Source of the DNA: a virus
Virus record (IMG/VR): IMGVR_UViG_3300013232_000807
DNA: 21,929 bases
Strand: one strand, 5' to 3'
Shown here: positions 16,121 through 16,543 of the stretch, one piece after another
Layout: the number at the start of each line of letters is the position of its first letter
How positions within the stretch are numbered: the first letter of the stretch is position 1
Notes under the pieces: model-generated
Told to the model about the DNA's origin: nothing
The model's database searches: none
Seen by the model: the letters and a program-made list of their open reading frames with translations, nothing else
Program-made: the position numbers and the translations under genes

Positions 16121-16543
16121 ATGAAGGTCATCTACATCGGCGCGTTCCTCGACGAGGAGTCGAAGGCACGCCTCCTCGCTGCGGTGCCCGCGCAGCACCC
16201 CAACGTGTTCGCGGAGCACATCACCCTGGCGTTCAAGCCCGGCCTGGACAGCCCGCTCTTCCTCAAGCTCGGCGAGACGGTCGAGTACGAGGTGCTCGGG
16301 TACGCGCAGGACGACCGCGGGCAGGCGGTGGTGATCTCCGGACCCGCTGGGATGCTCGGGCAGAACGAGTTCCCGCACATCACCATCTCGTGCGCCGACG
16401 GTACGAAGCCCTTCTACAGCAACGAGCTGCTCTCGAACAACACGCTGACCGGCATCCCTCCGGGTCTCGTGCTGCGCGCCGTCGTGAAGGCAGTCGTCAG
16501 CCGCGCGGGCGGCATCGCGCACGTCGTCTCGCTGGACCCGTGA
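16121..16543 (+). CDS. 2H phosphoesterase superfamily protein (two H-x-T motifs; LigT/cyclic-nucleotide phosphodiesterase-like)
   Basis: RBS GGAGG precedes the ATG. The motifs AEHITLAF and FPHITISC are the paired HxT/Sx signatures of the 2H fold. Confidence 0.6.
   Translation: MKVIYIGAFLDEESKARLLAAVPAQHPNVFAEHITLAFKPGLDSPLFLKLGETVEYEVLGYAQDDRGQAVVISGPAGMLGQNEFPHITISCADGTKPFYSNELLSNNTLTGIPPGLVLRAVVKAVVSRAGGIAHVVSLDP

Follow-up and report, generated by a model that had tools for sequence, protein, structure and literature searches.

We identified the gene at positions 16121-16543 (plus strand) of a 21,929-nucleotide stretch of viral DNA (IMG/VR record IMGVR_UViG_3300013232_000807, hereafter the window) as a compact 2H phosphoesterase gene, whose product is probably a metal-independent RNA 2',3'-cyclic phosphodiesterase. 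In this reading, to which we assign a probability of about 60%, the protein would be a minimal form of the end-healing domain known from CNPase and from the cyclic phosphodiesterase (CPD) part of the RNA ligase Trl1. The kind of enzyme is known, namely a phage 2H phosphoesterase for cyclic-phosphate ends, and the compact subfamily concerned is large and unannotated. The source element is an uncultured large phage. A preliminary description of the same DNA had placed a 140-amino-acid protein at these coordinates, and the open reading frame (ORF) was found exactly there. It had also put forward two functions: degradation of cyclic oligonucleotides in the manner of the phage nuclease Acb1 and, as equally possible, RNA repair. 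The second of these is supported by the Pfam profile PF08302, by gene fusions and by gene neighbours, and in our analysis it is better supported than the Acb1-like proposal rather than level with it.

The coding evidence for the gene is good. The ORF opens with an ATG at 16121 and its stop codon ends at 16543; a ribosome-binding site (GGAGG, 16109-16113, plus strand) can be read from the sequence 7 nucleotides 5' of the ATG. The GC content by codon position (0.67 / 0.41 / 0.94) is the signature of genuine genes in this window, which has 67% GC overall. An alternative GTG start at 16031 falls inside a strong hairpin and all homologues begin at the position of the MKVIY sequence; we therefore take the ATG at 16121 as the start.

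The two H-x-T motifs of the protein read as they had been described before. The first, H33-I-T35, lies within EHITLAF (residues 32-38; motif at 16217-16225, plus strand) and the second, H86-I-T88, within PHITISC (residues 85-91; motif at 16376-16384, plus strand), with 53 residues from histidine to histidine where the earlier figure was about 55. By our estimate, the chance of meeting two such triplets in 140 residues is not rare (roughly 1%). What makes the pair more than chance is the conservation of H33, T35, H86 and T88 across homologues. In an alignment of 34 homologues (mostly 130-170 residues, 31-51% identity), drawn from about 5.8 billion proteins by word-indexed searching, H33, T35 and T88 never vary and H86 is retained in at least 90% of the sequences. 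The catalytic histidines and threonines of both motifs stay invariant in 37 multidomain relatives as well. A third motif, Y99-S100-N101 (in KPFYSN; 16415-16423, plus strand), is specific to the family and stands at the start of the helix after the second motif; S100 and N101 are invariant and Y99 is kept in at least 90% of the alignment. The same Y-S-N is found in the CPD domain of a giant-virus Trl1-like protein and in a fusion to a topoisomerase, both of which are described below. As a speculation, it may contact the terminal nucleoside.

An AlphaFold2 model predicted from the family alignment (predicted local distance difference test, pLDDT, 88.6; predicted template modelling score, pTM, 0.82) has the 2H phosphoesterase fold. 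It is bilobed and of the alpha+beta type, and each HxT motif sits on a beta-strand (residues 33-38 and 86-91), the two strands lining the central cleft. The 2H fold proposed in the preliminary description is thereby borne out at the level of the model, which has a compatible topology and finds 2H structures in Foldseek searches. When the model was compared with the Protein Data Bank (PDB), the matches were CNPase, the fungal Trl1 kinase-CPD structure 6u05 and goldfish RICH. Vertebrate CNPase and goldfish RICH take nearly all the top ranks, yet their sequence identity to the window protein is 14%. Among viral models, giant-virus multidomain proteins come first (a 771-residue protein of CroV and a 765-residue 'RNA ligase' of Marseillevirus) and an Acb1 model ranks fifth. 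The structural score to Acb1 is about half of that to CNPase. The predicted structure is therefore nearer to CNPase and Trl1-CPD than to the other 2H branches. Sequence and profile searches of the PDB returned no 2H entry and only spurious matches (PNPase, HIV gp120), so that the link to solved structures rests on the comparison of folds.

Placement within the superfamily follows from profile matches and from one long alignment. The sole Pfam match of the window protein is PF08302 (tRNA_lig_CPD; E = 9.8e-5), over 28 residues that cover the second motif and the following helix. The same profile is matched by all 34 family members, the best at E = 1e-8. Furthermore, a locus from a giant-virus metagenome-assembled genome (MAG; L030 in our set of loci) encodes a 643-residue protein with RNA_lig_T4_1, tRNA_lig_kinase and tRNA_lig_CPD domains, and positions 3-124 of the family profile align end to end to its last 126 residues. 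This alignment takes in HHVTL, DDK..A.VV and PHIT....GTKPFYSN. On the strength of the PF08302 matches and of this end-to-end alignment, the window protein is, as judged from sequence, a compact CPD module that stands alone here and that, in a Trl1-like RNA ligase, serves as the healing domain. Existing annotation is silent on this point: phrog_36523, to which the protein belongs, is listed as 'unknown', and no NCBIfam model matches the protein.

The same profiles bear on the proposal that the protein is an Acb1-like anti-defence nuclease, which would cleave the 3'-5' (or 2'-5') bonds of the messengers used by the cyclic-oligonucleotide-based signalling system CBASS, type III CRISPR or Panoptes. 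Acb1 of phages T4 and FBB1 belongs to the same superfamily and has a similar size (about 140-150 residues), and the window gene stands alone and has an upstream motif of its own. Viral 2H phosphodiesterases are diverse and several of their groups degrade messengers, while some structure groups are inactive on all 18 messengers assayed (Doherty et al., 2025, bioRxiv 2025.08.21.671373). Nonetheless, the Acb1 model (PF23474) matches a single one of the 34 family members (E = 0.07, against 34 of 34 for tRNA_lig_CPD) and has no match in the window protein even at E <= 10. The structural match is much weaker than that to CNPase. The substrates of Acb1 are cyclic oligonucleotides, in which it cuts 3'-5' bonds, whereas the relatives of the compact family are tied to RNA-end-repair domains; the fusions and conserved neighbours of that family include none related to signalling, and its chromosomal homologues in bacteria of the candidate phyla radiation (CPR) lie among genes of a housekeeping type. 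Every comparative measure used here sets the protein apart from Acb1, and we consider an Acb1-like activity, which the preliminary description had favoured, to be quite improbable.

Other known 2H branches differ from the window protein in other ways. The LigT / ThpR enzymes (PF02834, PF13563) form a different subfamily of about 180 residues; the window protein has no match to these profiles, and PF13563 is matched marginally by one of the 34 members (E = 0.02). In eukaryotic 'Swiss army knife' proteins the LigT-type and the compact CPD domains occur side by side. Because both are present as separate domains in the same proteins, they are not interchangeable copies of each other. With the Trl1-type CPD of fungi, plants and giant viruses (PF08302) the window protein shares the paired HxT motifs and the segment after the second one, although it is a free-standing protein of 140 residues where the CPD is the C-terminal domain of an 800-residue ligase. 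It is also some 100 residues shorter than the PF08302 model (250 positions), of which only positions 192-220 align. Compared with CNPase, the chemistry is presumably the same, by analogy, with a 2',3'-cyclic phosphate opened to a 2'-phosphate. The CNPase catalytic domain, however, has about 210 residues with extra elements, is preceded by an N-terminal P-loop domain and belongs to a membrane-associated eukaryotic protein; its catalytic histidines (H230 and H309 in the titles of PDB entries) are about 79 residues apart, against 53 here. The linkage to a P-loop domain of the polynucleotide-kinase type, which is characteristic of both Trl1 and CNPase, is absent, and neither a kinase nor a ligase gene was found in the 22-kb window. 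More broadly, the protein falls into the same general category as the phage 2H enzymes surveyed before, which have been proposed to clear 2',3'-cyclic phosphates in RNA repair or to degrade immune messengers (Iyer et al., 2021; Doherty et al., 2025).

The family to which the gene belongs is large. A HMMER profile scan of 1.84 billion cluster representatives (clusters at 50% identity) returned 4,031 clusters at E <= 1e-3, of which 1,779 reach E <= 1e-10. Members come from jumbo and huge phages, giant viruses and CPR bacteria; in eukaryotes the family is represented by a domain of multi-domain RNA-repair proteins. About one quarter of the best 150 cluster representatives are longer than 190 residues, and 37 of these were scanned against Pfam for fused domains. 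The most frequent partner is HAD_SAK_1 ('HAD domain in Swiss Army Knife RNA repair proteins'), present in 8 of the 37. The PolyA_pol head of CCA-adding-type enzymes, the AAA_33 P-loop kinase, the MJ1316 'RNA cyclic group end recognition domain', R3H and a second 2H domain of the AKAP7/LigT type were each found in two. Two proteins of 1,500-1,700 residues combine most of these in the order MJ1316, AKAP7-type 2H, AAA_33 kinase, compact CPD, HAD_SAK and R3H. Their succession of kinase and CPD is the same as in the Trl1-like protein of L030, and it is the order of Trl1 and CNPase as well; in P0159 and P0179 AAA_33 lies immediately N-terminal to the CPD. CCA-adding-type enzymes are fused to the CPD in P0121 (1,210 residues) and P0143 (789 residues). 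The CPR homologues (L045-L050; Saccharibacteria, Taylorbacteria, Yonathbacteria) are chromosomal and have neighbours such as SecDF, amylase and pilin genes, and those of L045 and L050 carry a C-terminal extension of about 330 residues with no Pfam match. Among cultured phages, searches of the INPHARED DNA and protein collections with the window region, the window protein or the endolysin encoded next to it gave no relatives, and with a consensus-like family member as query the sole copy was a 'hypothetical protein' of Sinorhizobium phage Phosso (L133). The exact sequence of the window protein was likewise absent from the public assemblies looked up.

Gene neighbours tell a similar story. Since a longest-ORF gene caller tends to pick antisense ORFs in high-GC DNA (for example over the MVP-like gene of the window), neighbour counts in high-GC loci were rechecked by tblastn and by six-frame searches with hidden Markov models. 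Over 34 non-redundant viral loci, the only recurrent immediate neighbour of the 2H gene is a CCA-adding-type nucleotidyltransferase gene (5 loci). It immediately precedes the 2H gene in L014, L019, L025 and L035 and immediately follows it in L011, the stop codon of the first gene overlapping the start codon of the second. Five such genes occur in the 0.53 Mb around 2H genes, compared with none in 1.55 Mb of control DNA from large phages; L014, L019 and L025 are related to one another, so that the pairing amounts to about three independent cases. Elsewhere, the loci L001 and L004 contain Macro, IF1, RNA ligase (PF09414), Thg1, RlaP and RNase T genes, AAA_33 kinase genes lie near the homologues of L007 and L009, and a peptidyl-tRNA hydrolase, an aminoacyl-tRNA synthetase and an NAPRTase gene near that of L006. 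These RNA-repair components are those of the jumbo-phage RNA-repair list of Iyer et al. (2021; Viruses 13:63; PMC7824862), who regarded jumbo-phage 2H enzymes as 2',3'-cyclic phosphate specialists with a role in RNA repair, namely to clear such ends. As far as domain content can tell, the fusions and neighbours of the family are components of RNA-end repair and not parts of signalling or defence systems. L006 itself is a 177-kb contig that NCBI labels as a 'Promethearchaeota archaeon' MAG; it has an MVP-like gene and many small ORFs in addition to the 2H gene, and looks like a jumbo phage that was binned into an archaeal MAG.

Some of these neighbours could also fit an enzyme that clears small cyclic phosphates instead of repairing polymeric RNA. 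Its substrates would be 2',3'-cyclic nucleoside monophosphates (2',3'-cNMPs) or ADP-ribose cyclic phosphate (Appr>p), and it would remove reporters of RNA damage or feedstock of defence signalling linked to NAD and ADP-ribose. CNPase, the best structural match, was assayed on 2',3'-cNMPs and 2',3'-cyclic NADP according to the titles of its PDB entries, and the similarity extends to the plant CPDase. In L001-L005 the second gene upstream of the 2H homologue encodes a Macro domain, the NAPRTase gene of L006 could be read in the same way, and in L010 the 2H domain is fused to a phosphoribosyltransferase domain. Moreover, Iyer et al. (2021) propose that a cell might read cyclic phosphates of this kind as a sign that its translation apparatus is under attack. 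On the other hand, the fusions to MJ1316, R3H, polynucleotide-kinase-like AAA_33 and CCA-adding domains point to polymeric RNA ends, and the Macro and NAD-related neighbours are confined to a few lineages. We regard a small-molecule substrate as unlikely, though less so than an Acb1-like one.

If the protein is indeed a 2',3'-cyclic phosphodiesterase acting on RNA ends, its mechanism can be sketched from the chemistry of the family. General acid-base catalysis would fall to H33 and H86, with T35 and T88 positioning the phosphate, and the enzyme would hydrolyse, with no metal, the 3'-O-P bond of the terminal 2',3'-cyclic phosphate left by metal-independent RNases. Host RNases of this kind include MazF-type toxins, anticodon nucleases, and HEPN toxins and effectors. 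If the reaction resembles that of CNPase and Trl1-CPD, it would yield an end with a 3'-OH and a 2'-phosphate. Such an end could next lose its phosphate, be lengthened by a CCA-adding enzyme or be joined by an RNA ligase. In a large phage, the enzyme would likely help to mend tRNAs or other RNAs that RNase-based defences or toxins of the host have cut, and a counter-measure to such RNA-cutting defences is a plausible role for the gene.

Food for thought is the pairing with CCA-adding enzymes. A more specific version of the RNA-repair reading, which we put forward as a tentative and rather speculative possibility, is that the compact CPD supplies the missing first step of a phage pathway for the rescue of tRNA 3' ends. 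HEPN-type or other metal-independent RNases might clip the acceptor ends, leaving a 2',3'-cyclic phosphate that blocks the CCA-adding enzyme. A stand-alone CPD would reopen the end, and a CCA-adding enzyme of the phage or of the host, together with a phosphatase, could rebuild the tail. The pairs and fusions of CPD and CCA-adding enzymes would then represent a widespread and so far uncharacterised counter-defence module. The pair is a provisional grouping and not a curated one, and its partner is absent from the window; in this phage the lone CPD gene would have to work with host enzymes.

Several observations weigh against the assignment as an RNA-end-healing enzyme. 2H enzymes with a common fold differ widely in their substrates, and it is the fold group, not the motif, that predicts specificity (Doherty et al., 2025). 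The structural evidence comes from a predicted model and not from a solved structure, and the window protein scores 22.4 bits where the gathering cut-off of PF08302 is 23. Stand-alone proteins make up about three quarters of the best-scoring cluster representatives, and the neighbourhoods of the 34 viral loci are very diverse. In the window itself, a Pfam scan of about 26 ORFs detected no RNA ligase, polynucleotide kinase, CCA-adding enzyme, Tpt1 or HAD phosphatase, and a tRNA scan of the 22 kb detected no tRNA genes. With no repair partner in the 22-kb window, the repair context comes from distant relatives rather than from this phage. Finally, the two closest copies of the gene bear lesions. 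One lies at 10001-10436 of L008, a 183-kb IMG/VR contig (IMGVR_UViG_3300044695_008209) that is syntenic with the window at 45-76% protein identity, and it has a +1 frameshift near codon 27. The other lies at 2621-3043 of L052, an independent 3.2-kb contig with 2x coverage and the same order of MVP-like, 2H and lysin genes; it is 97% identical to the window copy and has the substitutions H86P and D65A. These lesions may be sequencing errors, or they may reflect relaxed selection on a dispensable gene.

Taken at face value, the lesions would suggest that the gene is an accessory one, dispensable or in decay, and that it now has no function in this lineage of phages. The window copy argues otherwise, since it is intact and retains all invariant residues, a GC content of 0.94 at third codon positions and a good ribosome-binding site. 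In L052, all six differences from the window copy are changes from A/T to G/C, which, at this low coverage, look like sequencing errors. We therefore consider gene decay to be highly unlikely.

Topoisomerase genes are repeatedly found close to the compact 2H gene. Four lineages (the window, L008, L033 and Sinorhizobium phage Phosso) have a gene of the GyrB type within 1-2 kb of it; a fifth, L019, has a TopA gene (5038-7119) two genes upstream. In L026 (2082-6860) a single ORF of 1,592 residues joins the 2H domain to a eukaryotic-type Topo IB core. Type IB topoisomerases make 2',3'-cyclic phosphate ends at ribonucleotides embedded in DNA. An enzyme that opens such ends could thus belong to a replication module and process topoisomerase-linked nicks in DNA. 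Most of the linked topoisomerases, however, are of type II or type IA, which make no cyclic phosphates; the linkage may merely reflect where the block of replication genes is placed, and fusions to RNA-repair domains are more numerous. There is, in our opinion, very little chance that the gene serves DNA-nick processing.

Should the assignment as an RNA-end-healing CPD be right, this small and easily expressed enzyme would represent a large, essentially unannotated family at the border of PF08302. It could serve as a minimal model for the catalytic core shared by CNPase and Trl1-CPD, and as a marker gene for RNA-repair counter-defence in phages, notably where it is paired with a CCA-adding enzyme. 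It also holds a caution for the mining of anti-defence genes: finding paired HxT motifs and a 2H fold in a phage protein does not suffice to call it an Acb1-like degrader of messengers.

Expression of the gene appears to be set apart from that of its upstream neighbour. Positions 16027-16068 (plus strand) can form a hairpin whose stem has 18 bp (fold of -51.8 kcal/mol, z = -5.25), and a T-rich tract, TATTTCTT, comes after it. The hairpin was found in a scan for terminator-like sites and looks like a terminator that closes the transcript of the MVP-like gene ahead of the 2H gene. Between this hairpin and the ribosome-binding site lies the motif CATAAG (16096-16101, plus strand), a candidate phage promoter or leader element. 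It is one of eight copies in the window (at 1085, 1828, 3365, 4033, 12689, 13358, 16096 and 17341, where 1.2 would be expected by chance), all on the plus strand and all shortly 5' of start codons; at three of the sites TCTTAGC is found further upstream at a variable spacing. CATAAG is probably a phage-specific promoter or leader element, and the 2H gene probably has a transcription start of its own, or at least is kept apart from the transcript of the MVP-like gene. The promoter-like motif that the preliminary description had ascribed to the gene is borne out in part: CATAAG is a candidate for it, but no sigma-70 consensus site was found in 15800-16800.

All credible genes of the window are on the plus strand. 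The 2H gene lies, as had been noted, between an MVP homologue and a lysis gene. The former (13413-16019, plus strand) encodes 868 residues with matches to MVP_shoulder (E = 1e-22) and Band_7, and the latter (16609-17334, plus strand) an endolysin with VanY-type peptidase and PG_binding_1 domains. Downstream of the endolysin gene follow an ORF of 77 residues, a cysteine-rich ORF of 168 residues, the GyrB-type topoisomerase subunit gene (18092-20002) and an HNH endonuclease gene. L008 keeps the order of 2H, lysin, small gene and GyrB and has no MVP-like gene at that position. The absence of the MVP-like gene from this otherwise syntenic contig marks it as an insertion or deletion in the lineage. 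MVP-like genes occur near the 2H gene in the window and in L006, L012 and L090. We considered whether the two form a conserved functional unit and rejected the idea: only 2 of 80 MVP loci have a 2H gene within 10 kb, and the syntenic L008 lacks the MVP-like gene. MVP-like homologues were found in 236 IMG/VR loci, mostly contigs of 100-500 kb, and in the 462-735-kb 'huge phage' records LR756500-LR756503.

A few further features of the window deserve mention. The cysteine-rich ORF (17589-18095) has the pattern CRDCG...CPRCG...GCGC at its N-terminus and no Pfam match, and L008 has no counterpart of it between the small ORF and the GyrB-type gene. A GIY-YIG gene (10068-10403) and the HNH gene (20301-20846) are likely homing endonuclease genes; the first lies just upstream of a gene for a 495-residue protein with a weak match to Mrr_cat, the second just after the GyrB-type gene. 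The last 46 bases of the window (21884-21929) are CTGTCTCTTATACACATCTGACGCTGCCGACGATCTACTCTGTGTA, which we take to be an Illumina Nextera transposase adapter with its index. With an adapter recognised there, the contig end is an artefact, and the ORF at 21545-21904 runs into it. Lastly, positions 9005-9802 encode a dCMP/cytidine deaminase-like protein of 265 residues, in which a Pfam profile of 102 positions is spread over residues 69-231, indicating a large insertion inside the deaminase domain.

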